From Anaerolineales bacterium (lineage in GTDB: Bacteria; Chloroflexota; Anaerolineae; Anaerolineales; RBG-16-64-43): a stretch of 64,000 nt of DNA. The stretch is from contig JBEKXU010000002.1 in the NCBI GenBank assembly GCA_049511715.1, positions 100,994-164,993 of the forward strand, written 5' to 3'. A program made the translations under genes and the position numbers. The notes under the pieces were generated by a model. It was not told the DNA's origin, searched no databases, and was given only the letters and a program-made list of their open reading frames with translations. The stretch's first letter is position 1, and each line of letters begins with the position of its first letter. This document shows positions 9,703-61,645 of this stretch, one piece after another.

Positions 9703-10857
9703 TCAGGCTGTTTTGAGGATGTGGGTGGCAACCAAGGCGCCTGAGCCGCCAATGTTCAGGGCCATGCCTACCCGGGCCCGCTCCAACTGGTTGGCCCCGG
9801 CCTCTCCCCGCAATTGCTGGACGACTTCGACGATCTGGTACATCCCTGTGGCCCCGACGGGATGGCCGCGGGCCTTGAGACCTCCCTGGGTCGCGATTGG
9901 GAGCGAGGCATTCAAGCGGATCCTGCCCTCCAGGCCGAGCCGGGGGGCCTGCCCGCGCTCGGCAAACCCGCAGGCCTCCAGCGAGAGCGCGCTCAGGATG
10001 CTGAAGGCATCATGTAGCTCGAAGAAGTCGATTTGGGCGGGCTGAAGGCCGGCTTGGTCGTAGGCCTTGCGAGCCGATTGAAAGGCGGCGAGGAGAAAGA
10101 GGGGATCCTTGCGATCGTGAACCGCCAGGGAATCCGTGGCTACTCCCGACCCGGCGACCACCACGCGGGGGCGCGGTCCGCCGGCCACCCGCTCGGCCGG
10201 GACCAGAATTGCCGCCGCGGCGCCATCGCCGATGGGCGAGGCATCCAGCAGGTTAATGGGGTCGCAGACCATGCGTGCGTGAGCGTAGTCCCGTTCTGTG
10301 ATCGGCTCCTGCAGCCGCGCAAACGGATTGCGGGCTCCATTCGCATGCGCATTGATGGAGAAGGGCGCAAAGTCCGTGTGCTTCCAGCCGAATTCATGCA
10401 TGTAGCGCTGCATGAGCAGCGCATTGAGGCCGACGAAGGTGACGCCCTGGGCGGACTCGTAGTCCGCGTCCGCGGCGGTGGCCAGAGCCGCCGTCGTCTC
10501 GGCGGCTGAGGTCTCGGTCATCTTCTCCGCGCCGAGGGCCAGGGCCACGTCCACGGCGCCCGAGGCAACCGCCAGCCAGGCCAGGCGAAAAGCGGCGGCC
10601 CCGGAAGCGCAGGCCCCTTCGACCTTGTAGGCCTCTACCGGTTTTTGTCCGAGCCAGTCGGCGATCAGGGCTCCCAGGTTCTCCTGCCGGGCGACGATGC
10701 CGGAAAGCATGTTGCCGACGAAGATCGCCTCCACCCGCTCCAGGCCCGCATCCCGCAGCGCGGCCAATCCCGCTTCCGTGGCGAGATCGCGCAGCGAGTG
10801 CTCCCAGTGCTCCGCGACGGACGTCTGGCCGATACCGAGAACCGCAACCTCGCGCAT
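9703..10857 (-). CDS. Archaeal/SCP-x-type acetoacetyl-CoA thiolase (mevalonate pathway)
   Basis: The nucleophile motif is VEGACASGAAAF, followed by GAEKM and GGLKARGHPVGATG. It lies in a cluster with DUF35 and HMG-CoA synthase genes. Confidence 0.85.
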   Translation of the reverse strand: MREVAVLGIGQTSVAEHWEHSLRDLATEAGLAALRDAGLERVEAIFVGNMLSGIVARQENLGALIADWLGQKPVEAYKVEGACASGAAAFRLAWLAVASGAVDVALALGAEKMTETSAAETTAALATAADADYESAQGVTFVGLNALLMQRYMHEFGWKHTDFAPFSINAHANGARNPFARLQEPITERDYAHARMVCDPINLLDASPIGDGAAAAILVPAERVAGGPRPRVVVAGSGVATDSLAVHDRKDPLFLLAAFQSARKAYDQAGLQPAQIDFFELHDAFSILSALSLEACGFAERGQAPRLGLEGRIRLNASLPIATQGGLKARGHPVGATGMYQIVEVVQQLRGEAGANQLERARVGMALNIGGSGALVATHILKTA

Positions 10858-10875
10858 GGGCGGCTGGGCCGGGTC

Positions 10876-11277
10876 TCAAACGGCCGCGAGTACCGGGCGG
10901 AACTTGTAGCCGTACTGGATCAGACCTTCTTCGCCCTCGGCGCGCAGCTTGCGGGTCACCATCTCTACCGGCAAGCCGATCCGCAGCTCCCGGGGGTCCA
11001 CATCCGTGATCTGGGCCGTGACCAGCGGTCCTTCGGCGAGCTTGACCAGGGCGATGGCATAGGGCGCCTGGGTTTCATAGCCGCTGGGTGCGTCGTGAAT
11101 CACCGTGAACGAGTAGACCTCGCCCTGACCGCTGAAGCTGAACCGCGACTGGGTGGCCCGGCCGCATTCGGGGCAAATGTCCCGCGGCGGGAAGATCTTG
11201 GCGTGACAGTGCTCGCACTGCTCGCCCACCAGTCCGTAGCGCTGCTGTCTCAGTCTCCAATTGCGTGGGATATCCAT
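10876..11277 (-). CDS. DUF35 Zn-ribbon/OB-fold protein (scaffold of the thiolase/HMG-CoA synthase complex)
   Basis: Zn ribbon CEHCHAKIFPPRDICPECG followed by an OB-fold tail. It sits between the thiolase and HMGS genes, as in archaea. Confidence 0.8.
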   Translation of the reverse strand: MDIPRNWRLRQQRYGLVGEQCEHCHAKIFPPRDICPECGRATQSRFSFSGQGEVYSFTVIHDAPSGYETQAPYAIALVKLAEGPLVTAQITDVDPRELRIGLPVEMVTRKLRAEGEEGLIQYGYKFRPVLAAV

Positions 11278-11295
11278 AAACCTCCTGGGCGCTCT

Positions 11296-12435
11296 CTACT
11301 GGCGCAACTTCCCGCGGAAGCGCGCATAGAGGGCGTAGTCGATTTCTTTGCGGCGGGCCAGATAGTCCCGGGTGCGGGCCGCCAACCCCTGACGGCTCGG
11401 CAGGGCCTCCGTCACTCGCAGGCTGAAGGCGTCTGACCCGGCGCCCGAGCCGAAGGAGACGACCAGAAGCCGGTCTCCCGGTTCCGCTTCGTCGAGAACG
11501 GCCGTCAGGCCGATCAGGGTGGCTCCGGCATAAGTGTTCCCGATCTGCGGCACCAGCAGCCCCGCGCGGATCTGTTCCCGCGTAAAGCCCAGATCGACCG
11601 CAACGCGCTGCGGGAACTTGGTGTTGGGCTGGTGGAATACCGCGTGCCGGTAGTCGCAGGGCTGGAGCCCTAGGGCCGCCATCAGTTCGCGGGCGGCGGC
11701 TTCGCTGTGCTTGAAATAGGCGGGCTCCCCCGTGAAACGCTGGCCGTGCTGCGGATAGGCCGCCTCCGCCCGGCGCCAGAAGTCCGGGGTATCCGTCACG
11801 TACGAATACGAGGCTTCGATCACGGCCAACGACTCATCGGCCGGACCCACGACCAGGGCCGCCCCCCCCGCTCCTGCCGTGTACTCCAACGCATCACCCG
11901 GCCGCGCCTGTGCCGTATCCATGCCGATGGCGATGGCGTAAGGGACCATTCCTGAGCCCACCAGTCCGATCGCGGCCTGGAGCGCCTCGGTGCCGGCCTT
12001 GCAGGCGAACTGCCAATCGGCCGCCAGCAGGCTGGGAGAGGCGCCGATCGCCTCGGCCACGATGGTGGAGGTTGGTTTGACGGCGTAGGGATGCGATTCC
12101 GATCCCACCCACAGGGCCCCGATCTGGCTGGCCGGGATCCGGGCACGGGCCAGCGCATTGCGCGCCGCCTCCACGGCCATGGTTACGACGTCCTCGTCCA
12201 GCCCGGCCACGGACTTCTCCTGAACCGGTAGCGGGGCCGCCCCGTCGCTCCACACTCGGGCCACCTCCCGGGCGGGCAGCCGGTATCGGGGCAGGTAGGC
12301 GCCGTAGCCCAAGATGCCCACCGGATGGGACGGCCGCATCGCTCGCCCCAGAGGACGGGCTGCGGCCTGTGGGCTTGGCGCAGAGGTTTGGACCGCCGGA
12401 CTTGCGCTTCGGTTCCCTTCCACCCTCGTTTCCAA
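11296..12435 (-). CDS. Hydroxymethylglutaryl-CoA synthase (archaeal type)
   Basis: [24 protein letters not shown], the FACKAGT active-site Cys region, HQPN and [12 protein letters not shown] at 12435 has a GGAGAGG SD. ATG at 12339 would give the usual ~347 aa. Confidence 0.85.
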
Positions 12436-12470
12436 TTCCTGCCTCTCCAGGACGGCGCCCAGGACGGCTC

Positions 12471-13751
12471 CTACTTTCCCGAACGGTGGAGCAATTCCTG
12501 TGCCCGGTCAATTCTCACGGAACCCTCGCGAACCATCTGCTCGGCAATGGTCCCAACCGCCTCGCCCTCCGCGCCCGCGGCCATGGCCACTTGGCGCGCG
12601 TGCAGGGACATGTGGCCGCGCTGGATTCCCTCGGTGGCCAGCGCCCGCAAGGCCGCCAGGTTCTGGGCCAAGCCGACGGCGGCGATAATCTCCTCCAGCT
12701 CGCGGGCACTGCTGACGCCCAGGATCTTTAGGGAAAGTCTGGCCAGGGGATGCACCTGACTCGCCCCGCCGACGATGCCCACGGCCAGGGGAAGCTCGAG
12801 CGTTCCGGACAGGTTCCCCTGGGGATCGCGTTCCCACGTTGAGAGCGAGGTATATCGCCCCGACCGAGCCGCATAGGCATGGGCCCCGGCTTCGACTGCC
12901 CGCCAGTCATTCCCCGTAGCGATCACCAGGGCATCGATCCCGTTCAGGATGCCCTTGTTGTGAGTGGCGGCGCGATAGGGGTCGCAGGCGGCGAAGGCCC
13001 AGGCCTCCAGGATTCCGTCGCGCACGCGCTCCCCCGAGTAGCGCTCGAAGGCAAGGCCCTCCACCGGGATCCGGCAACGGGCCCGGGCCAGGCGGCGATC
13101 GGCCAGGTTCGAAAGGATCCGCAAATGGACGCGCCCTCCCGTGATCCGCTCGAGTTCCGGGGCGAGCCTCTCGCAAGCTGTGTTGACCGAATTGGCCCCC
13201 ATGGCGTCGCGGACATCCCAGAGGAGGTGGACCACCAGAAAGGGACCGATGGGCGAGTTCTTGATCTCGCGGATCTCCAGCCCGCGGGCGCCCCCTCCGA
13301 GCCCCAGCAGCATGGGATCGGTCTGATTGGCAACCTCGAGAAGGTGATCTCGGTTCTCGAGCAGCTTCGCTTGCGCGAGCTGGAGGTCGTCCAGGTCCAG
13401 GAGTTGAATCTGACCGATCATCACGGGGTCGTCCGCTTCGGCCTGGAACCCTCCTGTGGCGCGCGCCAGTTTGGCCATGAAGGAGGCTCCCGCCACCACC
13501 GAGGGCTCCTCAATGACCATCGGGACAAGCATCTCCCGGCCGTTGACCACAAAGTTCGTGGCAAATCCGAGCGGCAGCGAGAAGACGCCGGCGACGTTCT
13601 CGATCATCTGGTCCGCCTGCGAGGGATCCAACCCGCCGCTGCGGAAGGCCTGGCCGGCCTGCGCCTCAAAGCCGAACTGGGCGCAGACTGTCTCCAGCCG
13701 CTTCTGCCAGGGCTGGTTGTAGAAGCCGGGCAAGCGGGAACTCAGGGGCAT
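12471..13751 (-). CDS. HMG-CoA reductase (class II-like)
   Basis: [44 protein letters not shown] and GIVGG motifs. ATG at 13751 ([11 protein letters not shown]) gives ~426 aa. Confidence 0.85.
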
Positions 13752-14509
13752 TATGGCGAATCTTTCTTTCCGTTCCTTGCGCCTTGGACAGACTTGAAGA
13801 AAAGGCAAGATGAAACATCACAGTACTCGGCCCCGCCTAGCAATTGCTCTCAGGGTCCCCGCCCAGCAGGGATAAAGCGCTTGTTTCAGGAGCCTGAGAG
13901 GAAATGAGGGAGCTTGGGAAGGGCGACCCGAAAGGTGCCAAGTATCCTCAATGATGCCTGCCATCAGCTTTGAAAGCCGACCGGGGCGAAAACGCGGTCA
14001 AGTCGCCATGAGAAGACTGGCTCCTTAGGGATCACACGGACCGGTGTCGTCGGAGATGTGTGCCTCCCAGACCTCATCAGAGAAAAGGATATGGCCTTGA
14101 CTGCTCGGCAGGGTCAGGGCCGTCCCCGTCGAGGCGGACCAAGACCAGCCCGCGGATGGTCCTAAGCCGAGAATCGGGGAACGGAGCAGGGCACGAAGCT
14201 TGCATGGGCTGGCAGGTGCTCACTTGCAATGGCCAGCTTGGTTCCGCTCCAGCCGGCGGAGATGGCGTCCGGAGGCAGAGGGAGGACTCGGCGATGCTCC
14301 TGGGGCACCGGCCAAGAACGTTTCCGCAGTGTGAATTTATTGTTGGGGCAGCGTGAAAGGCCGGGCGCATTCTGGCAAGATCGGTGCGCTTCCGGTATCC
14401 AGGCCGGAGGCACCAATCTCTCTCCTATAATGCCGGCAGAACACAAGGCGGGGAAGCCGCCCCACACGTCGGCCGAATTCATTGGGTTCACGAGGAACAG
14501 GAGAAAAAC

Positions 14510-33781: not shown

Positions 33782-35350
33782 TCAAAGGGGGGAGCCGGAC
33801 GGTGAAGCGAATCGGCCGGTGCGACGTGCCGGGTGGCTTTCGGCAAGGAAGTTTGCGATTTGGCCTGGGGTGGGAGGTTGTTCCTGGGTGGTCAACAAAT
33901 GCGAGCGGGCCCAGAAGTCTCCTGCCTGGCCCTGGGGCACCAAAGAGGGGAAACGTCCGAGCAAATGGTCGGTCGTCATGCTCCGCAGGCGGCCAACGAT
34001 TAGGCTGGGAAGAACCGTGGGCGGAGCGGAGAGGGATACCAGGAGGTAATCCGGGTGGGCACTCACCCGCATGGGACGACAGCCGAGGGCAACCACCAGG
34101 TTGCGAGTGAAGCCCTCCAGGTCGCTGGCCACTTCGGGAACCAGGCGCAGATTCTCGTCCGTGGGCGACAGTACAAGGTGGTAGGTCAGGCGGATGCTGC
34201 CGACCTCCCCCGCGGAGCTCTCGGCAGGTCCGGCACCCTTGAGCGAAAAGGGCGGCTCGGCCGAACCGGCGGAGCCTCTGCCAGGGACCTCTGGCCAGTC
34301 CTGCAACCTGTGGGTGCCCATCGTGTAGATATCCTCGGGTTGCAGCCGGCGGGTCCCCATCGTGTAGATGTCCTCGGGTTGCAGTCTGCGGGTCACACCA
34401 GGCTTGGACTCTTGAGGCCCTCGGGGAGTGGCAACTCCCGTTCCCGCCTTTGTCTGGGGCGCCTCATGAGGGGCCCGGGAAGCCGGGACTTCCGACTCCC
34501 TCACGGGCGGCAGCGGTAGCGCCGGGGGTTCTTCCAAGGCGGCCAGGATCTGCCGAGCCTGAGCTCTCATTCTTGCCGAGGGTTGCCACGTATCGAAGAC
34601 CAGCGTGAGGTGCAGTCCCGCCGGGGCCGGGGTGGAGTACAAGAGATAGTCCTCCTCCCGCGAAGGAACGTTCAGGTAACGCACGACCACCCCACCCATG
34701 GAAGGGGACCAATTCTCCCTGATGGCCTGGGCGGCGGCTTGTGCCTCCGCTGGCTGCAGGTCCCCACAGGCAGCCCACACCTGTCCTGAGCGACTGAGGA
34801 GGCAAGCAGTTGCTTCGATCGTCGGCTGGAGGGAAGCCAGCAGGTCCTGGGCAAAGCGGGGGTCCTGGAGCGGGCTGGGCAACACCTCCGCCGCCTTGGG
34901 AATGGCGCCAGCCGGGGTCTCGGCCGCGCGCATCTCCGTCACGGTGAGGCTGACGGGAGGCCCCGTCGGCATTTCTGGTTTGCGGGCGGCCCGGGCTTCC
35001 AGAAGTTTCCTGATCAGGGGCAGGAAGTCGGGCAGATAGAAAGGCTTGGTCGTTGCGGCTTGAAGCCCGAGAGATTCGACCAACGGGTGATGAGGATCGT
35101 TGTCTGGCGGGATGCCTACCAGGATGAGGCTGGGGTTGAGCGCGCGCAGCGAGCGCACGAATTCCTCCGGTGTCCCCTCCGGAAGGTCCAGATCCAGAAT
35201 GGCCAAGTCGAACGACACCGTCGAGGCCAGGTGCAGCGCTTCCTGGTCGGTCTGGGCCACCTGGCAGTCGTACCCAGCTTCCTGCAAGGCCTGCTGCACC
35301 ATGCCGGCAAAGCCCGGGTTGGGATCAAGGACCAGGATCGAGCTGGCCAT
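33782..35350 (-). CDS. Multi-domain response regulator: receiver + possible Roadblock/LC7-like domain + Pro-rich repeat linker + degenerate IS200/IS605-TnpA-like (HUH/Y1) domain
   Basis: The receiver has ILVLDPNP, LAILDLDLPEG and TKPF. The C-terminus LTYHLVLSP..HPDYLLVSLSAPPTVLPSLIVGRLRS..DFWARSHLLTT..IANFLAE parallels the Y1 transposase layout but lacks the HUH histidines and the catalytic Tyr. Confidence 0.7.
   Translation of the reverse strand: MASSILVLDPNPGFAGMVQQALQEAGYDCQVAQTDQEALHLASTVSFDLAILDLDLPEGTPEEFVRSLRALNPSLILVGIPPDNDPHHPLVESLGLQAATTKPFYLPDFLPLIRKLLEARAARKPEMPTGPPVSLTVTEMRAAETPAGAIPKAAEVLPSPLQDPRFAQDLLASLQPTIEATACLLSRSGQVWAACGDLQPAEAQAAAQAIRENWSPSMGGVVVRYLNVPSREEDYLLYSTPAPAGLHLTLVFDTWQPSARMRAQARQILAALEEPPALPLPPVRESEVPASRAPHEAPQTKAGTGVATPRGPQESKPGVTRRLQPEDIYTMGTRRLQPEDIYTMGTHRLQDWPEVPGRGSAGSAEPPFSLKGAGPAESSAGEVGSIRLTYHLVLSPTDENLRLVPEVASDLEGFTRNLVVALGCRPMRVSAHPDYLLVSLSAPPTVLPSLIVGRLRSMTTDHLLGRFPSLVPQGQAGDFWARSHLLTTQEQPPTPGQIANFLAESHPARRTGRFASPSGSPL
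34313..34390 (-). repeat. In-frame 39-nt tandem duplication (2 copies) inside the response-regulator linker
   Basis: It encodes RRLQPEDIYTMGT twice. At DNA level the copies differ at only 4-5 positions. Confidence 0.85.
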
Positions 35351-35476: not shown

Positions 35477-36514
35477 CTATTTGCCGAGGCGCTTCTTGAG
35501 TTCCTCGGTCAGGGCGGGGAGAACCTGGTGCATGTCGCCTACCACCCCAAAGCGCGCCAGTCCGAAGATGGGAGCCTCAGGGTCTTTGTTGATGGCGACA
35601 ATCGTCTTGGCCGTGCGCATTCCGGCTTGGTGCTGAATCGCGCCGGAGATGCCGCAAGCAATGTAGACGTCGGGGGATACGACCTTGCCCGTCTGCCCCA
35701 CCTGGTTGGCGTAGGGAATGTAGCCGGCATCCACAGCCGCGCGGCTGGCCCCCACGGCGGCACCCAGCACGCTGGCCAGCTCGCGGACCAGCTTGAATCC
35801 CTGCTGGGCCTTCCAGATCTCCTTTTGCTTATCATCGGTGATATCCGCTGGCGGAGTGAGGTTGGGGTTGTTCGCCACACCGCGTCCCCCGGAAACGATG
35901 ATCTTTGCATCCGTCAAGCTGACCCCGCCCTCGGAGGCGACGTATCCGGAAACCTTTGTGTGCAGGTCCGACTCGCTCTGGGTTGGGTTCACCTCGGTGG
36001 CCGTTCCGCTTTTGCCGGGTTGGGCCTCGGGCATGGCAAAAGCGCGCGGCCGTAAGCTCACGATGCGGGTTCCCCCGGAGGCAAAGACGGCGGTCGTAAA
36101 GAGCTTGCCGGCATAGACCGGGCGGGTGACTCGCAGGGCGCCGTCCTTCGTCTCCAGCCCGGTCGCGTCGGGAATCGCTCCGCAACCGAGCTCGGCGGCC
36201 ACCAGGGCCGTGATATCCCGGCCGCGAGTGGTGCAGGGGATCAGCAGAAGTCCCGGTTTCTTCTCTGCGGCGAGGTGCGCGACAAGTCCTGCGAATGCTT
36301 CGGCGCGGAATTCTTCGAGCAGCGGGTGTTGACTCCACAGGACCTGGTCGGCCCCGAATTGGAAGGCTTCTTTGGCAATCGCCTGGGCCCCGGGCCCAAA
36401 CACGAGTGCCGTGACGGGGCCTCCCATCGTCTTCGCTTGCCCCAAGGCCTCCCAGGAAGCGGGCAGAGGCGTACCCTTGAACTGATCGACGTAGACCCAA
36501 GTCTCGTTGCTCAT
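35477..36514 (-). CDS. etfA: Electron transfer flavoprotein alpha subunit
   Basis: The FAD-binding tail reads IIVSGGRG..LGAAVGASRAAVDAGY..NQVGQTGKVV.PDVYIACGISGAIQH. It overlaps the etfB stop by 1 nt (TGATG). Confidence 0.9.
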   Translation of the reverse strand: MSNETWVYVDQFKGTPLPASWEALGQAKTMGGPVTALVFGPGAQAIAKEAFQFGADQVLWSQHPLLEEFRAEAFAGLVAHLAAEKKPGLLLIPCTTRGRDITALVAAELGCGAIPDATGLETKDGALRVTRPVYAGKLFTTAVFASGGTRIVSLRPRAFAMPEAQPGKSGTATEVNPTQSESDLHTKVSGYVASEGGVSLTDAKIIVSGGRGVANNPNLTPPADITDDKQKEIWKAQQGFKLVRELASVLGAAVGASRAAVDAGYIPYANQVGQTGKVVSPDVYIACGISGAIQHQAGMRTAKTIVAINKDPEAPIFGLARFGVVGDMHQVLPALTEELKKRLGK

Positions 36515-37308
36515 CAGATCACCTTCTCCGCAATCAGTCGGTCGACTAGGACCCGGGCGGTTTCTTGAGGGGTCTCGCCCTTAACAACCTCGCATTCCAC
36601 TTTGTGGACGGGCGGGGCGTAGATCTCGGACCAGGATACGAGAGCCCCTCCACGGCCAACCTGGGACGGTTCCACTCCCAACTCCGCGATGGACCAGGTG
36701 GGAATGGTCGCCTTGGAGGCTTTGCGAATCCCCATGAAGGAGGGATAGCGTGGCTCGTTAATCTCTTTGGTCACGCTCATCACGGCCGGAAGCTGCGCCT
36801 GGACCACCTGTCGGCCTTCATCGATCATCCGCTGGACGCGCATGGTCTTGGTCTCGGGCTTGATCTCCTCGACCGCAGCCACGTAGGTGAGGACAGGCCA
36901 GCCCAGGAGACGGGCCACTTGTCCCGTCGTCAGTCCGGTGTCTCCGTCGATCGCCTGGCGCCCGAACAGCGCGAGATCCACAGCGCCGATCTTGCGTATG
37001 GCCGAGGCCAGGACCCGTGCAGTGCCCAGGGTGTCCGAGCCCTTGAGCCCGGCATCGCTCACCAGGATCGCCTCGTCACAGCCCATGGCCAAGCCCGTCT
37101 TGAGCGCCTCTCGAGCGCTCTCAGGCCCCATGCTGATGGCTGTGACCTTGCCCCCGTGTTTTTCCTTCTGGCGGAGGGCCTCCTCCACGGCGTATTCATC
37201 CCAGGGGTTGACGATCAAGGGCGCGTCTCCCCAGGAAACGTGTCCGCCTTCCACGGTGACCTTAGCCGCCGAATCCGGAGTTTGTTTGACGCAGACGACG
37301 ATGTTCAA
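36514..37308 (-). CDS. etfB: Electron transfer flavoprotein beta subunit
   Basis: MNIVVCVKQTPDS...VNPWDEYAVEEALR..G.QAIDGDTG.TGQ. Confidence 0.9.
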   Translation of the reverse strand: MNIVVCVKQTPDSAAKVTVEGGHVSWGDAPLIVNPWDEYAVEEALRQKEKHGGKVTAISMGPESAREALKTGLAMGCDEAILVSDAGLKGSDTLGTARVLASAIRKIGAVDLALFGRQAIDGDTGLTTGQVARLLGWPVLTYVAAVEEIKPETKTMRVQRMIDEGRQVVQAQLPAVMSVTKEINEPRYPSFMGIRKASKATIPTWSIAELGVEPSQVGRGGALVSWSEIYAPPVHKVECEVVKGETPQETARVLVDRLIAEKVI

Positions 37309-37402: not shown

Positions 37403-38599
37403 TCAGGGAGCCCGGTGGGCTGGTAGTTCTGTGCGCAGAGCCCCATCCTCCCGCAACCCCAGAGCATAACCGGCTTGAATCAGGGTGTGGATTTCGCTGG
37501 TTCCCTCGTAGATCATCGCGCCCCGTGCGTTGCGGAAGAAGCGCTCGACATCGAACTCGTCGCTATAGCCATAAGCGCCGTGCACCTGAAGAGCCTGGCT
37601 GGCGGCGTCGAAAGCGGCCTCCGTCGCGTACCACTTGGCCAAAGAGCTTTCGCGCGTGTTTCGCCGGCCTTGATTCTTCAGCCAGCCAGCGCGCAGGTAC
37701 AGCAGGCGGGCAATCTCATACTGTTGTGACATGCGTGCGATTTTCTCCTGGATGAGCTGGTGTTGGGCAATTTCTCGGCCGAAGGCCTTGCGCTCGCGGG
37801 CGTAGCTCACGCTCGCCGCGAGGCAGGCGCGGATCAGACCCGCCGCTCCGGCCGCAACCGTGTAGCGGCCGTTGTCCAGGCAAGACATCGCGATGGCGAA
37901 ACCCTCCCCCTCCTGGCCGATACGATTGCCTTCGGGAACACGCACTTCATCGCAGCGAACCCACCCAGTTGACCCCGCCCGTATGCCAAGCTTCCCCGGC
38001 AGATCACCGCGCGTCACCCCAGGCCGGTCCGTCTCCAGGAGAAACGCAGAGAGGCCGTCGTGAGGGTCTTTAGCTCCCGGATTCGTCCGGGCGAACCAAA
38101 GCACATGGTCAGCTTTGGTAGCGAGTGAGATCCACATCTTCTCGCCCTTGAGCAGATAGTCGTCCCCGTCGCGCCGTGCGGTGGAAGCGAGGTGGGCTGC
38201 GTCCGAACCGGCCCCCGGTTCCGTCAGGCCAAAAGCCGCGATCTTCTCCCCCCGGGCCTGGGGCACAAGGAAACGGCGCCTCTGTTCTTCGTTAGCCCAC
38301 TGCAACAGGCCCAGACTATTGAGTCCGACGTGGACGGACATCACCACCCGCAAGCTGGTATCGACACATTCGAGTTCCTCGCACGCCAGCCCCAGGGAAA
38401 TGTAGTCCAGATCCTGACCTCCGTAGGCCGAAGGGATGCACAGGCCCAGCAGGCCCTGGGCGGCCATGCGAGGCAAGACCTCCGGTGGCATTTCCGCCCG
38501 GCGGTCTGCCTCCTTGATATGCGCTGCAATCTCCCGCCGAGCGAATTCGCGCACGGTCTTCTGGAGAAGCAAGTGTTCTGAGGAGAGCTCGAAGTCCAA
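37403..38599 (-). CDS. Acyl-CoA dehydrogenase
   Basis: FGLTEPGAGSD, KMWISLA and the C-terminal YEGTSEIH catalytic-base region. It is adjacent to etfBA. Confidence 0.9.
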   Translation of the reverse strand: MDFELSSEHLLLQKTVREFARREIAAHIKEADRRAEMPPEVLPRMAAQGLLGLCIPSAYGGQDLDYISLGLACEELECVDTSLRVVMSVHVGLNSLGLLQWANEEQRRRFLVPQARGEKIAAFGLTEPGAGSDAAHLASTARRDGDDYLLKGEKMWISLATKADHVLWFARTNPGAKDPHDGLSAFLLETDRPGVTRGDLPGKLGIRAGSTGWVRCDEVRVPEGNRIGQEGEGFAIAMSCLDNGRYTVAAGAAGLIRACLAASVSYARERKAFGREIAQHQLIQEKIARMSQQYEIARLLYLRAGWLKNQGRRNTRESSLAKWYATEAAFDAASQALQVHGAYGYSDEFDVERFFRNARGAMIYEGTSEIHTLIQAGYALGLREDGALRTELPAHRAP

Positions 38600-57333: not shown

Positions 57334-58488
57334 TTGATGAATCGAACCGTCGAGATCGTAGGAGTGGGATGGAGCGGCTTTCGATCCATTACGCCTGACC
57401 AGTCGTACAAGGAACTTATTTTTGAGGCCGCGACGCGCGCCTATGCCGATGCAGGCATCGATCCCCGCTATGACGTTCAAGGATTTGTTACCGCTGCGGA
57501 GGACTACCACGAGGGGACCAGCATCTATGATGAGTACACCCCCGATCAGCTCGGTGCAGCCCAGAGGCCTATGCACACGATCGCGGGCGACGGCTTGCAT
57601 GCGCTGGCCGCCGCCTACATGCAGATCGCCTCGGGATTGATGGATGTGGTGGTCGTCGAAGCGCACAGCAAGGCTTCCAATATCCTTTCCCTGCCTCACA
57701 TCACCGCGTTCGCAGAGGACCCAACCTTCGAACGTCCTCTGGCTCTGCACCCCATTGCGCTGGCGGGTCTGGAAATGCAAGCGTTGATCAATTCAGGGCG
57801 GATCACAGAGGAAGAGTGCGCCGGAGTTGTGGTCAAGAATAGGCGCAACGCAACGCGCAACCCATCGGCCGCTCATGGAATTGAGGTCACCAGCAAGGAT
57901 GTCCTTGCCTCGCCGCCCCTGGCCTCGCCGCTCACGAGCCTGATGGCGGCCCCCCATGCAGACGGCGCTCTGGTATTCGTCTTGGCAGACACGGAGAGGG
58001 CGCGAACTCTCAAGGGGAATCCGGTCCGTGTGCGCGGCGTGGGCTGGGCCACCGACACGCCAGCCTTGGACTCGCGGGATTGGACCGGGGGGCGTTACGC
58101 CCGCAAGGCCGCGGAGATGGCTTACCGGGTCGCTGGAATTCATACGCCCGGGCGGGAGATTGACTTCGCGGAGGTGGATGACTCCTTTGCCCACAAAGAG
58201 CTCCTCCACCTGGAGGCCCTGGACCTGGTGCCCAAGGGGCGCGCGGGCGAGTGGACCCTGCAGGGCCAAACGGCTCCTTCCGGATCGATGCCTGTCAACA
58301 TTTCCGGAGGGGCCTTGGGGGAAGGATCGCTCCTGGATGCCACCGGGCTGTCGCGCGCCTTAGAGGTGGTGCTGCAACTACGCGGCCAAGCCGGACCGCG
58401 GCAACTTCCTCATGTCACCACCGGATTGGCTTTTGGCTGGCGCGGACTGCCCACCACGGTAGGCGTCGCTGCCGTGCTCAGCGCGTAA
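57334..58488 (+). CDS. Thiolase-fold protein A lacking nucleophilic Cys and catalytic His
   Basis: The overall SCP-x-thiolase layout is present (VGVGWSGF.., EAHSKAS, ADGALVFVLA, NISGG). However, TIAGDG replaces CxSG and GEGSLLDATG replaces GHPxGATG. Confidence 0.75.
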   Translation: MMNRTVEIVGVGWSGFRSITPDQSYKELIFEAATRAYADAGIDPRYDVQGFVTAAEDYHEGTSIYDEYTPDQLGAAQRPMHTIAGDGLHALAAAYMQIASGLMDVVVVEAHSKASNILSLPHITAFAEDPTFERPLALHPIALAGLEMQALINSGRITEEECAGVVVKNRRNATRNPSAAHGIEVTSKDVLASPPLASPLTSLMAAPHADGALVFVLADTERARTLKGNPVRVRGVGWATDTPALDSRDWTGGRYARKAAEMAYRVAGIHTPGREIDFAEVDDSFAHKELLHLEALDLVPKGRAGEWTLQGQTAPSGSMPVNISGGALGEGSLLDATGLSRALEVVLQLRGQAGPRQLPHVTTGLAFGWRGLPTTVGVAAVLSA

Positions 58489-58499
58489 AGGAGGGTGAC

Positions 58500-59666
58500 A
58501 TGACCATGCGACGGGTGGCTGTTGTGGGGGCCGGGATGACGAAGTTTGTCCGCCGAGCACAAGAGACGGGGCGGGAACTGGCCTGGGAGGCGACGAGCAA
58601 AGCGCTCGAATCCTGTGAGATGAGCATTGACCAGATTGAGGCGGTCGTGATGGGCACGGGTCCCGATGCCTTCGATGGGGTTCACATGAAGTCAGAGTGG
58701 CTGGCGGATGGGGCTGGCGCGTGGGGCAAGCCTTGCCTGCGCGGGTATGTAGGAGGCGGAACGGGAGTCTTTGCGGCTGCCCAAGGCTGGTATCACGTGG
58801 CCTCCGGTCTGTTCGATACCTGCCTGGTAGTCTGCGAGGAAAAAATGTCGCCTGCGCAGCCCCACCCGCAGGGTGCCTTCCTGACGATCTTTGATAGCTT
58901 CATCGAGAGGCCTCTGGGGCCCAACCTGCTTTGGATCTTCGCTCTGGAGATGAATGCTTACATGCAGCGCTACGGCCTGCGTAAGGAGGACATTGCCCAG
59001 GTTGCTGTCAAGAACAAGCGCAATGCCGCCGACCACCCCGCCTCGCTCTTGGGGGATCGAAATATCACTCTCAAGGACATTCTCGAATCTGAGGTGATGG
59101 CTTGGCCGGTCCAGCGACTCGACGTCAGCCCCGTAACGGACGGAGCCGTGGCCGTGGTGCTGGCGGCCGACAATGTCGCCCGGCGAGTAACCCCCCAGCC
59201 CGTGTGGATCGAGGGCGTCGGCTGGAACCTGGACACTGCCTACTGGACCGATCGCGATCTTTCCTACCCGACCTACGTCGAGGAAGCAGCGCGGATGGCC
59301 TACCGCATGGCCGGCATCACCGAGCCGCGCCAGCAAATCCATATCGCGGAACCCTACGACCCATTTGACTACAAGGAGTTGCATCACCTCGAGGGGCTGA
59401 TGCTCTTCCCCAAAGGCAAGGCTCCCGAGGCGACCGCCTTGGGCATTACCCAGCGCAACGGCGACTTGCCGGTTTGTCCTTCGGGGGGCTTGCTCGGCGT
59501 GGGCAACCCCATAGCCGCCGCTGGCCTGATGAAGGTCGCCGAGCTCTTCTGGCAACTGCGGGGCGAGGCGGGCGGAAGACAGGTCCCTGGCGACCCGAGG
59601 CGGGGTGTCGCGCAGGCCTGGGGAGACCTGATGCAGGTGGGCACTGTTGTGGTCATGGGGAAGTGA
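58500..59666 (+). CDS. Thiolase-fold protein B lacking nucleophilic Cys and catalytic His
   Basis: AAGGAGGG SD. VAVVGAGMTKF, EEKMS, TDGAVAVVLA and CPSGG are present. However, GGGTGV replaces CxSG and GVGNPIAAAG replaces GHPxGATG. Confidence 0.75.
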   Translation: MTMRRVAVVGAGMTKFVRRAQETGRELAWEATSKALESCEMSIDQIEAVVMGTGPDAFDGVHMKSEWLADGAGAWGKPCLRGYVGGGTGVFAAAQGWYHVASGLFDTCLVVCEEKMSPAQPHPQGAFLTIFDSFIERPLGPNLLWIFALEMNAYMQRYGLRKEDIAQVAVKNKRNAADHPASLLGDRNITLKDILESEVMAWPVQRLDVSPVTDGAVAVVLAADNVARRVTPQPVWIEGVGWNLDTAYWTDRDLSYPTYVEEAARMAYRMAGITEPRQQIHIAEPYDPFDYKELHHLEGLMLFPKGKAPEATALGITQRNGDLPVCPSGGLLGVGNPIAAAGLMKVAELFWQLRGEAGGRQVPGDPRRGVAQAWGDLMQVGTVVVMGK

Positions 59667-59678
59667 GGAGGGAAGGCC

Positions 59679-60185
59679 ATGATGGATCAATGGGTCTATT
59701 CCACGACCGGGCTGCACGAGAAGGACTTCGAAACAGGGCGGGTCCTGGTGGAAACATGGAAGAGCAAGGCCGAGTACGCCTGGGACGCGGGAATTGCGAT
59801 GGGACGGTTTCTTGAAGAACTCCGCTGCGGCCGCTTGGTGGGCCGCCGCTGCAACTCCTGTCACCGCGTCCTCTTTCCGCCCAGAATGTTCTGCGAGCAG
59901 TGCTTCCGGCCGACAGCGGAATGGGTCACTCTCGCCGAGACCGGAACCGTGATGACCTATTCGATAGTCCATGTGCGCTGGGACATGGTGAGACTGAACC
60001 AGCCGCAGGTGCCGGCCGTCGTCGCGATAGATGGCGCTTCCCAAGGCATGGGGATCCTGCACCTCCTGGGAGAAGTCGTGCCCGAGAGCGTCAAGATGGG
60101 AATGCGAGTCCAGGCGGTGTGGAAGACGCCCGAAGAGCGCGAAGGGTCCATCACCGACATCCGGTATTTCAAGCCGATCAGCTGA
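59679..60185 (+). CDS. DUF35 Zn-ribbon/OB-fold protein 1
   Basis: CNSCHRVLFPPRMFCEQC plus an OB-fold tail. Confidence 0.8.
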   Translation: MMDQWVYSTTGLHEKDFETGRVLVETWKSKAEYAWDAGIAMGRFLEELRCGRLVGRRCNSCHRVLFPPRMFCEQCFRPTAEWVTLAETGTVMTYSIVHVRWDMVRLNQPQVPAVVAIDGASQGMGILHLLGEVVPESVKMGMRVQAVWKTPEEREGSITDIRYFKPIS

Positions 60186-60217
60186 CGGTTGGGCTTTGTC
60201 CCACGGGGAGGTGAGCT

Positions 60218-60697
60218 ATGGTGCCTGCGGATAGGCTGGAACACCCGACCGAGGCCAGGACCTGGAAAGGGTCCATCCCAGTTTGGCACCGCTACACGGC
60301 GGGAATTGCTGGCGAACGTTTCCTTCGCGTCCTCAAGGAACAGGGCAAGATCATGGGGGCACGTTGCGGGGCCTGTGAGGTGACTTACGTGCCGCCTCGC
60401 ATGTATTGTGAGCGCTGCCTGAAGCCTTTGCCCGACGCGAGTTGGAAAGAAGTAGGGCCGCGAGGGGAACTGGTTTCCTTCACCCGAGTCTACCTGGACC
60501 TGGATGGCGAGCAACTAAAGACTCCCCGCTGGGTGGGCTTGGTCCGCCTGGAGGGCGCTTCGGGCGTACTCCTTCATTACCTGCAACTGCCCGAAGGGGT
60601 GCCACTCCGCCCAGGGATTCAGGTTGAAGCCGTCCTCAAGCCGGCTGGAGAGCGGCGAGGTTCAATCCTGGACATAGAGCACTGGAAAGTGGTCTGA
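60218..60697 (+). CDS. DUF35 Zn-ribbon/OB-fold protein 2
   Basis: GGAGGTGAG SD. CGACEVTYVPPRMYCERC plus an OB-fold tail. Confidence 0.8.
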   Translation: MVPADRLEHPTEARTWKGSIPVWHRYTAGIAGERFLRVLKEQGKIMGARCGACEVTYVPPRMYCERCLKPLPDASWKEVGPRGELVSFTRVYLDLDGEQLKTPRWVGLVRLEGASGVLLHYLQLPEGVPLRPGIQVEAVLKPAGERRGSILDIEHWKVV

Positions 60698-60758: not shown

Positions 60759-61115
60759 ATGGCAAAGGCCCCAGATCTCTCGTCGACGGTTTTGCTGGTC
60801 ACGCGCAACGGCATGGGGTGGGGTGACGAGAATCTGCAAAAACAGCTCTTGAAGAACTACCTGAACATGATCCTCGAAAACGGATCCTTTCCCTCCGCGA
60901 TCTGTTTTTACACCGAGGGGGTCAGACTGGTCACCGAGGGTTCCCCCGTCCTGGATGCCTTGCGGGACCTGGAGCAGAAAGGCGTGCAGTTAATTGCCTG
61001 CCGCACATGCTTGGCCTTTTATGGGCTGACCGCGAGCGTGAAAGTGGGAGTCGTCGGGGGACTCGGTGACATCCTTGAGGCCGAAGGTCTCGCGCAGAAA
61101 GTGATCCCGCTTTGA
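60759..61115 (+). CDS. DsrE-fold protein (YedF C-terminal-domain-like)
   Basis: VLLVTRNGMGWGDENL..., ICFYTEGV, and IACRTCLAFYGL as the conserved CxxC-proximal motif. Confidence 0.5.
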   Translation: MAKAPDLSSTVLLVTRNGMGWGDENLQKQLLKNYLNMILENGSFPSAICFYTEGVRLVTEGSPVLDALRDLEQKGVQLIACRTCLAFYGLTASVKVGVVGGLGDILEAEGLAQKVIPL

Positions 61116-61147: not shown

Positions 61148-61645
61148 ATGAAGATGAACCATTGGCTGATGCAGCTTGCGGGGAGACCGCTTAGGACGAG
61201 CGGCATGCTCGTCCTTGCCCTGGGGCTGGTCAGCTGCGGCTACAGCCCAAAGAGCCCCAACAGCCTGCTGGCTGCGCAGAACGGGAGTTCCGGGGATACA
61301 GCCTCGCCCCTGGCGGATGAGGCGACGGTGCTGCAAGTGTTTCTCCCGGGGGGAGGGTCGATCCCCTTCACCCTGCGCCAGCTTCGGGTCCTTCCCCAAG
61401 CCACACTGGATGTCCCCGGGGGGCAGCTCAGCGGACCTCCGCTGGAGGAGATCCTGCAGGCGACGGGGGTAGGAGACTACAGGACGGTCACGTTGGTGGG
61501 GAAGGAATCGGTCCGCCTCTCTAGCCTGGATGTCTCGCCGCAAGTCATTCTCCGTTTGACCAGTCAGGGCACCTTGGATTTGGCGGGGGCGAACATCCCC
61601 CATGCCGATTGGGTCAGGGATGTGCACGAGATTTACGTCCACTGA
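61148..61645 (+). CDS. Hypothetical lipoprotein
   Basis: The lipobox is MLVLALGLVSCG. I did not recognise any family. Confidence 0.5.
   Translation: MKMNHWLMQLAGRPLRTSGMLVLALGLVSCGYSPKSPNSLLAAQNGSSGDTASPLADEATVLQVFLPGGGSIPFTLRQLRVLPQATLDVPGGQLSGPPLEEILQATGVGDYRTVTLVGKESVRLSSLDVSPQVILRLTSQGTLDLAGANIPHADWVRDVHEIYVH

Follow-up and report, generated by a model that had tools for sequence, protein, structure and literature searches.

Positions 57334-60697 of a 64,000-nucleotide stretch of an Anaerolineales genome (the whole stretch is referred to as the window) hold a cassette of four genes, designated A, B, C and D, which encode two thiolase-fold proteins (A and B) followed by two DUF35 proteins (C and D). 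Neither A nor B can be a thiolase, because the nucleophilic Cys and both catalytic His residues of true thiolases are absent from both proteins. The four genes are kept together across at least four phyla, B and its DUF35 partners occur as natural fusions, and B shows little or no variation in the loops that correspond to the active site of thiolases. The reading favoured here, at a rough probability of 0.4, is that of a complex in which B would act as a cysteine-independent retro-aldol/aldol carbon-carbon (C-C) lyase on a short, probably branched, 3-hydroxyacyl-CoA.

Catalytic residues and conservation of the cassette proteins

The genes of the cassette are as follows:

57337..58488, plus strand: A, Cys-less SCP-x-type thiolase-fold protein of 383 amino acids (aa), assigned from Pfam and residues
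58500..59666, plus strand: B, Cys-less thiolase-fold protein of 388 aa, candidate catalytic subunit, member of NF004721/PRK06065
59679..60185, plus strand: C, DUF35 protein of 168 aa with a C4 zinc ribbon (Cys58, 61, 72, 75) and an OB fold
60218..60697, plus strand: D, second, distinct DUF35 protein of 159 aa with a C4 zinc ribbon (Cys50, 53, 64, 67) and an OB fold

Residue positions were taken from phmmer alignments to the solved archaeal thiolases 7yvy and 6esq, and the true thiolase encoded in the same window on the minus strand (9703-10857; Cys83, His282, His332) was used for reference numbering. The catalytic positions were occupied as follows:

Nucleophilic Cys (CxSG, N-terminus of helix N-alpha3): Ala83/Gly84 of A in TIAGDG; Gly86 of B in VGGGTGV
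His of HDCF/HDAF: Asp281 of A in VDDSF; Tyr286 of B in YDPF
His of GHP: Ser331 of A in GEGSL; Asn336 of B in GVGNP

The choice between Ala83 and Gly84 of A reflects two alignments that differ by one residue. Across orthologues the Cys position is Gly in 95 of 95 B proteins and Thr, Ala, Pro, Ser or Gly in A; the 95 B orthologues share no invariant Cys at any position, and at the nucleophile position, where Gly86 is fixed, no Ser is conserved. The A family has Asp, Asn or Ser at the HDCF-His position and, among 86 orthologues, His (47), Asn (17), Tyr (8), Asp (7) or Ser (5) at the GHP-His position, Ser331 of the window's A being a local state and not a family trait. A keeps an invariant Glu279 and Asp282, and residue 85 in its former nucleophile loop is Asp in 68 orthologues and Glu in 18. 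An earlier reading of the window made from the letters alone (the sequence-only reading) had claimed that A and B keep the SCP-x-type scaffold and have lost the nucleophilic Cys and the GHP His. The scaffold was borne out by Pfam and by alignments to solved archaeal thiolases, and both losses were confirmed in the alignments to 7yvy and 6esq, in which the HDCF/HDAF His was found to be gone too; the alternative that Cys and His are present but shifted was checked in the same way, and the residues are absent rather than displaced. The Ltp2-like Tyr residues that were to be sought were found in part, as Tyr286 in B but not in A (Asp281), the equivalent of Tyr344 of Ltp2 being Asn336 in B and Ser331 in A. 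The cassette was also considered as the organism's missing thiolase and rejected in this role, the window's genome having four canonical thiolases elsewhere; between two and five canonical thiolases were counted in each of this genome and four other carriers.

Conservation was assessed at thresholds of ≥97% for A and B and ≥95% for C and D:

B: 95 orthologues from at least four phyla; 157 of 388 positions conserved (40%)
A: 86 orthologues; 17% of positions conserved
C: 80 orthologues; 23% of positions conserved
D: 81 orthologues; 14% of positions conserved

The extent of conservation in B, at 157 positions over 95 orthologues, argues against decay or chance as the origin of the pair, and the cassette is real and ancient. 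The fixed loops of B are VGGGTGV (84-90), EPYDPF (284-289), GVGNPI (333-338) and AxAWGDLMQVGTV (371-383), the last of which takes the place of the true-thiolase loop NxGG(S/T)G and brings in the invariant Asp376 and Gln379. Because these four active-site loops are nearly or fully fixed in B while the equivalent positions drift in A, B is likely the catalytic subunit and A probably a non-catalytic, structural or auxiliary partner. High conservation together with a new fixed polar set (Tyr, Asn, Asp, Gln) would be the pattern typical of a repurposed active site. The zinc-ribbon Cys residues are kept in 79-80 of 80 orthologues of C and in 80-81 of 81 orthologues of D.

Pfam assigned Thiolase_C_1 to A, Thiolase_N and Thiolase_C_1 to B, and zf-ChsH2 (PF12172) and OB_ChsH2_C (PF01796) to both C and D. 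B is a member of the NCBIfam family NF004721 (PRK06065; 619 bits, cut-off 455), and NF004722 (PRK06066) is the best family for A, which at 432 bits lies below its cut-off of 516; the two families share the name 'thiolase domain-containing protein', which conveys no function, and the public annotation of A and B proteins is acetyl-CoA acetyltransferase. An AlphaFold2 (AF2) model of B (predicted local distance difference test, pLDDT, 86.5; predicted template modelling score, pTM, 0.91) gave template modelling scores of 0.84-0.91 to solved thiolases, the closest folds (Foldseek ranks 1-8) being ST0096 (4yzo) and archaeal thiolases. Among solved structures, the one nearest to D is SSO2064 (3irb; E 1.5e-14), with which it has an N-terminal YTxGxAGExF motif in common (YTxGxAGxxF in D), and which may be its Sulfolobus counterpart or orthologue. 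SSO2064 was the first DUF35 structure to be solved, and to our knowledge no function has been established for it. C is matched weakly by several DUF35 structures; Trf (Sso2509) was rejected as an orthologue of C or D, being unmatched at E ≤ 1.

The start of A is most likely ATG 57337 and not TTG 57334, because the resulting 383 aa equal the length of nearly all homologues and GGAGG stands 4 nucleotides (nt) upstream; residues of A are numbered on this form throughout. The predicted start of B is ATG 58500, with the Shine-Dalgarno sequence AGGAGGG, a longer open reading frame (ORF) from GTG 58251 having been dismissed because it overlaps A and is unsupported by the homologues (386-388 aa). All four genes are co-directional, with gaps of 11, 12 and 32 nt between A and B, B and C, and C and D, and each is preceded by a GGAGG-type Shine-Dalgarno site, strong for C and D, so that the earlier description of a DUF35 pair with good ribosome-binding sites and short gaps was upheld (Pfam; 11-32 nt). 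The distance from nusB to A is 303 nt, and simple scans of the cassette region gave neither a sigma-70-like promoter nor a convincing terminator. Directly downstream of D lie a gene for a YedF/DsrE-like small protein (60759-61115; TIGR03527 98 bits, cut-off 110) and an ORF of 165 aa without a Pfam match (61148-61645); both were rejected as parts of the cassette, as they accompany it only in the two closest relatives (L013 and L014).

Gene order, distribution and neighbourhoods

Gene order and neighbours were examined in 81 loci from at least four phyla. The complete A-B-C-D order is present in 63 of them; 15 of the 18 others are cut by a contig end, and L064, also among the exceptions, has all four genes, the classifier having labelled D as a second C. 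A is not adjacent only in L032 and L037. The L032 genome carries A elsewhere, and in the 2.5-Mb Anaerolineae metagenome-assembled genome (MAG) of L037, where ~870 nt are inserted between B and C (L037:3922-10984), an A orthologue was not found. The order was also seen in metagenome contigs and in four genomes belonging to the window's phylum, and further loci of a second phylum keep it in 12 of 13 cases, the thirteenth (L108) being cut by a contig end. The co-conservation of the four genes expected by the sequence-only reading is therefore real. Actinomycetota have a small gene of the vicinal oxygen chelate (VOC) fold inserted between A and B, and B and C fused in four loci; C is joined to the C-terminus of B in L040, L057, L075, L091 and P0242, and B-C-D triple fusions are represented by P0242 and P0256. 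Because such B-C and B-C-D fusions exist in nature, the four products are considered to act together physically, which argues for the single hetero-complex of a thiolase-fold pair and DUF35 partners suggested earlier.

Among 8,000 candidates scored from public protein collections, more than 3,500 were relatives of A and more than 3,500 relatives of B. Identity to B is 81-97% in its 120 best clusters, and identity to A is 63-91% in the 120 best clusters of A, the named sources being Anaerolineae, Thermoflexales and other Chloroflexota. In a HMMER scan covering 1.84 billion 50%-identity representatives the B orthogroup was tight, with representatives at 66%, 58%, then 43%, then ~35-41% identity. 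A relative of B is encoded in at least 575 GTDB species genome stretches, and the best 80 of these, in which B is 73-97% identical to that of the window across phyla, come from Chloroflexota (Anaerolineae, Thermoflexia, Chloroflexia, Caldilineae), Actinomycetota, WOR-3, a 'Deltaproteobacteria' MAG and Ca. Fervidifonticultor. The distribution is patchy: of the genomes sampled, 5 of 201 in the window's phylum and 14-15 of 301 in the second phylum carry the family, and among 14 named control genomes only Sulfolobus acidocaldarius scored above the cut-off for both NF004721 and NF004722.

A signature survey was carried out on 97 full-length sequences, comprising the nearest 50%-identity representatives together with the window's A, B and thiolase and the protein P0391. 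The Cys and both His residues are kept in only 19 of the 97, and Tyr at the HDCF-His position is combined with Asn at the GHP-His position in 25. A quick maximum-likelihood tree, with support from the Shimodaira-Hasegawa-like approximate likelihood ratio test and a midpoint root for drawing only, contained three groups, namely Cys-bearing thiolases with the window's mevalonate thiolase among them (100% support), an A-type group (98-99%) with the window's A inside, and a B-type Tyr/Asn group with a weak basal fork (40%) and two sub-clades at 96-97%; by this phylogeny the A-type and B-type proteins represent two old, separate Cys-less lineages. A sister cassette (L132:490-4998) encodes a CoA-transferase, the A-type protein P0391 (LGEDG, YDNY, GNP), the B-type protein P0250 (YDPF, GNP), a single DUF35 protein and a crotonase, and since it again joins one A-type and one B-type protein, the pairing of the two protomer types seems older than the A-B-C-D cassette. 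A MaoC-like gene lies on the opposite strand at L132.

In Chloroflexota the block (prfB)-fabD-fabG-Asp23-nusB-(tatA)-tatC often precedes the cassette and is co-directional with it (24 of 81 loci). Because Actinomycetota, WOR-3 and the second phylum lack this block, the adjacency to fabD, fabG and nusB is read as Chloroflexota synteny, not function. The sequence-only reading had pointed to the position next to fab/nusB genes; it was judged lineage synteny, tatA/tatC often lying between, and a functional link of the cassette to fabD, fabG or nusB was rejected.

The informative neighbours are a short-chain acyl-CoA dehydrogenase (ACAD), a CoA-transferase and a B12-dependent mutase of the isobutyryl-CoA mutase (ICM) type. 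An ACAD of the Bcd/AcrC type lies near the cassette in ~18 of the 81 loci, across phyla, a two-subunit family-I CoA-transferase in 6-8, and an ACS-like ligase is a neighbour in Actinomycetota. In the second phylum (centre L064), 8 of 13 loci have the order cob(I)alamin adenosyltransferase (ATR), mutase large subunit, mutase small subunit, A-B-C-D; a ninth locus, L108, is truncated and keeps MeaB. Downstream of D are an ACAD and MeaB in L115-L118, an ACAD in L112 and L113, and MeaB directly in L064. In alignment, the mutase adjoining A carries Phe where methylmalonyl-CoA mutase (MCM) has Tyr89, Gln where MCM has Arg207, and Ala where HcmA has Asp117. The Phe/Gln pair is what we take, from the literature on MCM, ICM and 2-hydroxyisobutyryl-CoA mutase, to be the ICM signature; assignment as a 2-hydroxyisobutyryl-CoA mutase was rejected, HcmA being the best PDB match but Asp117 being replaced by Ala and Ile90 by Phe. 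L115-L117 continue with a second mutase pair that has Tyr/Arg and is of the MCM type, and Pfam and NCBIfam scans identified mmdA and a true methylmalonyl-CoA epimerase in L116 as well. In L037 the large subunit of an ICM-type mutase is encoded directly upstream of B. Each of four near-complete carriers in the window's phylum, the window's genome included, encodes an ICM-type mutase, and the window's genome has, elsewhere, MutS and MeaB, CoA-transferase orthologues (66-70% identity) and several short-chain ACADs. Because the neighbours are an ACAD, a CoA-transferase and an ICM-type mutase, the cassette is placed in C4-C5, probably branched, acyl-CoA metabolism.

The L116 operon (L116:1-19901) consists of an ACAD, two HdrA/NfnB-like flavin and iron-sulfur oxidoreductases (752 and 644 aa), ATR, the ICM-type mutase and A-B-C-D, followed after D by an ACAD, MeaB, the mmdA carboxyltransferase, the MCM-type mutase and methylmalonyl-CoA epimerase; L115, L117 and L118 are alike, and an AraC/PocR regulator lies on the opposite strand at the L116 operon. 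In the window, an ACAD gene (37403-38599) followed by EtfB-like (36514-37308) and EtfA-like (35477-36514) genes is found on the minus strand ~19 kb upstream of the cassette, and a minus-strand ORF of 522 aa (33782-35350) shows an unusual pairing of an N-terminal response-regulator receiver with a C-terminal IS200-like Y1 transposase domain.

Proposed reaction and rival explanations

In the proposed mechanism, A and B would form a thiolase-fold heterodimer, or a dimer of heterodimers, with C and D each clamping one protomer. The substrate would derive from the product of the neighbouring short-chain ACAD, in the butyryl/isobutyryl-CoA (ICM) branch. Tyr286 of B would act as the base on the beta-hydroxyl, Asn336 and a backbone NH would stabilise the thioester enolate as an oxyanion hole, and the invariant Asp376 or water would protonate C-alpha, to give an aldehyde or ketone and a shorter acyl-CoA. 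A would serve as the dimer partner and contribute part of the pocket, and C and D would stabilise the assembly and may dock partner enzymes. By analogy, the context of the cassette could be likened to a sequence of ACAD, hydratase and aldolase, paralleled by ChsE (ACAD), ChsH (hydratase) and Ltp2 (aldolase); the sister cassette L132, with its CoA-transferase and crotonase, was counted towards this context.

Several observations weigh against the aldolase assignment, which is a best guess. B is without the general acid of either known aldolase, having Asn in place of Tyr344 of Ltp2 and Pro288 in place of Cys304 of Sal or His296 of Ltp2, and it is nearer to true archaeal thiolases (E 1e-41 to 4yzo and 7yvy) than to Ltp2 or Sal (~1e-17), because of which the Tyr common to B and these enzymes could be convergence or coincidence. 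No aldehyde-handling enzyme or hydratase recurs beside A-B-C-D in the examined loci, the mutase link is strong in one phylum and represented by a single adjacent locus (L037) in the window's phylum, and a decarboxylase or a hydratase would suit the neighbours as well. For the natural B-C fusion L091, the AF2 model (pLDDT 43, pTM 0.36) did not give a readable docking.

Decarboxylation without an acyl-enzyme is known in the thiolase fold (KSQ/CLF), and B might decarboxylate malonyl-, methylmalonyl- or ethylmalonyl-CoA, with Tyr286/Asn336 forming an oxyanion hole like the His/Asn of beta-ketoacyl-acyl carrier protein synthase III (KAS III) and the proton supplied by Asp376 or Tyr286. TbSLP, with its YDCF motif, is a weak malonyl-CoA decarboxylase (PMC12329534), the L116 operon continues with mmdA, the MCM-type mutase and a true methylmalonyl-CoA epimerase, and a VOC-fold gene stands between A and B in Actinomycetota. 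However, mmdA means that a carboxyltransferase is already encoded in the same operon, NCBIfam gave no support to the VOC gene being a methylmalonyl-CoA epimerase, the mutase adjoining A is of the ICM type, acting on uncarboxylated substrates, and not of the MCM type, and B is without the Gln and His pair of known decarboxylating ketosynthase (KS) proteins; a decarboxylase is regarded as unlikely. An acid/base enzyme that neither makes nor breaks C-C bonds, such as an enoyl-CoA hydratase or isomerase acting on the ACAD product, through for instance Asp/Glu85, Asp281 and Asp282 of A and the Tyr and Asp of B, would account for the ACAD being the most consistent cross-phylum neighbour, its product being a 2-enoyl-CoA, for A-B-C-D operons without a hydratase, and for the invariant Glu279 and Asp282 of A with Asp/Glu in its former nucleophile loop. 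We know of no thiolase-fold hydratase, however, and the crotonase of the sister cassette suggests that a separate enzyme performs hydration, so that this explanation appears rather improbable.

The absence of all canonical catalytic residues would be expected if the complex had no catalytic role and instead bound acyl-CoA as a scaffold or regulator, organising the mutase, the dehydrogenase and other enzymes or channelling between them; there is precedent for DUF35 proteins as scaffolds (PMC6996347; bioRxiv 10.1101/2024.07.05.601840), and many protein interfaces could explain high conservation. It is the focusing of conservation on exactly the four thiolase-active-site loops, the fixation of the new polar set and the recurrence of the signature across many clades that make a purely structural role improbable as well. 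A part in fatty-acid synthesis, with the complex assisting primer formation or condensation, or a true thiolase with another nucleophile, would be in line with the fabD-fabG-Asp23-nusB genes upstream on the same strand in 24 loci and with the public annotation as acetyl-CoA acetyltransferase. This was considered highly improbable: the adjacency is confined to Chloroflexota and usually interrupted by tatA/tatC and another gene, 303 nt separate nusB from A in the window, and B has neither an invariant Cys nor a conserved Ser where Gly86 is fixed.

Beyond the assignment of a cysteine-independent lyase, it is suggested tentatively, and with more doubt than confidence, that the cassette represents an undescribed family with new Tyr/Asn/Asp machinery for an unrecognised C-C step in short branched-chain acyl-CoA metabolism, spread over many bacterial phyla and Sulfolobales and tied to ICM-type mutases and short-chain ACADs. 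If so, one example would be a 3-hydroxyacyl-CoA lyase yielding an aldehyde or ketone and acetyl- or propionyl-CoA, bypassing dehydrogenase and thiolase, and the Cys-less pairing of A-type and B-type proteins would define a whole radiation of heteromeric lyases. Thousands of database entries are labelled 'acetyl-CoA acetyltransferase' or 'thiolase domain-containing protein' although unable to be thiolases. The breadth of at least 575 species genomes includes Chloroflexota, Actinomycetota, WOR-3 and a Desulfobacterota-like phylum, B is, at 73-97% identity across phyla, among the more constrained proteins met, and S. acidocaldarius, which matches both NCBIfam families, is a genetically tractable archaeon. 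The reaction, once solved, would supply a step now missing from models of how short-chain or branched-chain acids are metabolised anaerobically and in soil. It would also take the Cys-less thiolase-fold C-C lyases, a small set, beyond steroid catabolism and could yield a small-substrate CoA-dependent aldolase for biocatalysis.

Comparison with known systems

The minus strand of the window carries a complete archaeal-type early mevalonate module (9703-13808), the thiolase of which served as the in-window control:

9703-10857, minus strand: true SCP-x-type thiolase (ACASG, HDAF, GHP)
10876-11271, minus strand: DUF35 protein of the mevalonate module
11296-12435, minus strand: 3-hydroxy-3-methylglutaryl-CoA (HMG-CoA) synthase (NF003274, 535 bits)
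12471-13808, minus strand: HMG-CoA reductase of the mevalonate module

A role of the cassette in place of HMG-CoA lyase, in connection with the mevalonate pathway, was also considered and was not supported, HMG-CoA synthase being present in only one of five carriers from other lineages and thus not co-occurring with the cassette; a canonical HMG-CoA lyase above the cut-off was found in none of five carriers. Scaffolding by DUF35 proteins is known from two complexes, that of thiolase with HMG-CoA synthase and that of the fatty-acid synthase of Sulfolobus (PMC6996347; bioRxiv 10.1101/2024.07.05.601840). The sequences and folds nearest to A and B (E 1e-29 to 1e-41) are those of the archaeal DUF35-dependent acetoacetyl-CoA thiolases (6esq/6et9, 7yvy) and of ST0096 (4yzo). 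The DUF35 association is common to the cassette and these thiolases, in which the Cys and the His residues of HDCF/HDAF and GHP are all retained, whereas A and B keep none of these; ST0096, with Ser at the Cys position and both His residues kept, is likewise unlike A and B.

The nearest item in the literature, likened to the cassette by description only, is a thiolase/DUF35 pair, induced by acetone, from a Desulfotomaculum B12-mutase cluster (PMC8084838). The 2+2 arrangement had been called uncharacterised in the sequence-only reading, and this agrees with the literature searched, in which neither a functional description of it nor a functional study of the cassette, ST0096, SSO2061-2063 or a DUF35 protein with a mutase was found. 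The decarboxylating KS proteins (KSQ/CLF) have Gln with His-His or His-Asn, whereas B has Gly and no His, and only the Asn is common to both. Ltp3-Ltp4 is an actinobacterial aldol-lyase pair for the C24 branch of sterol side chains, formed by adjacent thiolase-like paralogues that are thought to cooperate. Compared by description only, it resembles A and B in the pairing of thiolase-like paralogues and differs in its steroid context, which is missing here.

The established Cys-less thiolase-fold retro-aldolases are Ltp2-ChsH2(DUF35) and Sal-Shy(DUF35), the motifs of which correspond to HDCF of SCP-2 thiolases; TcLtp2 uses Tyr294 of Y-D-H-F as base and Tyr344 as acid, and CtSal has Tyr302 and Cys304 in Y-D-C-Y with Gln352 at the second position (PMC12329534). 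The cassette resembles TcLtp2-ChsH2 (6ok1) in having a thiolase fold without the nucleophilic Cys, a DUF35 partner (obligatory for Ltp2), an acyl-CoA dehydrogenase in the pathway or neighbourhood, and Tyr at the HDCF-His position (Y294DHF in Ltp2, Y286DPF in B, where Tyr286 is invariant). It differs in that His296 is replaced by Pro288 and the general acid Tyr344 by Asn336, in that the MaoC hydratase and steroid context are missing around it, and in its architecture, Ltp2 being a homodimer with the DUF35 domains of a hydratase and the cassette encoding a proposed heteromeric A/B core with two stand-alone DUF35 proteins. CtSal-CtShy (9myr) and TbSLP are likewise Cys-less, with Gly at the nucleophile position, and have the Tyr-Asp-x-aromatic motif of B. 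Asn336 of B stands exactly 50 residues after Tyr286, as do Tyr344 in Ltp2 and Gln352 in Sal after their own Tyr, and it has an amide side chain in common with Gln352; the essential Cys304 of YDCY, by contrast, is Pro288 in B, and A reads D-D-S-F at this motif. Both systems are distant from B, Ltp2 at E 7e-17 with ~23% identity and Foldseek rank 27, and Sal, which has other partners and another context, at E 2e-17 and Foldseek rank 37; by these E-values and ranks, A and B are placed outside the Ltp2 and Sal clades.

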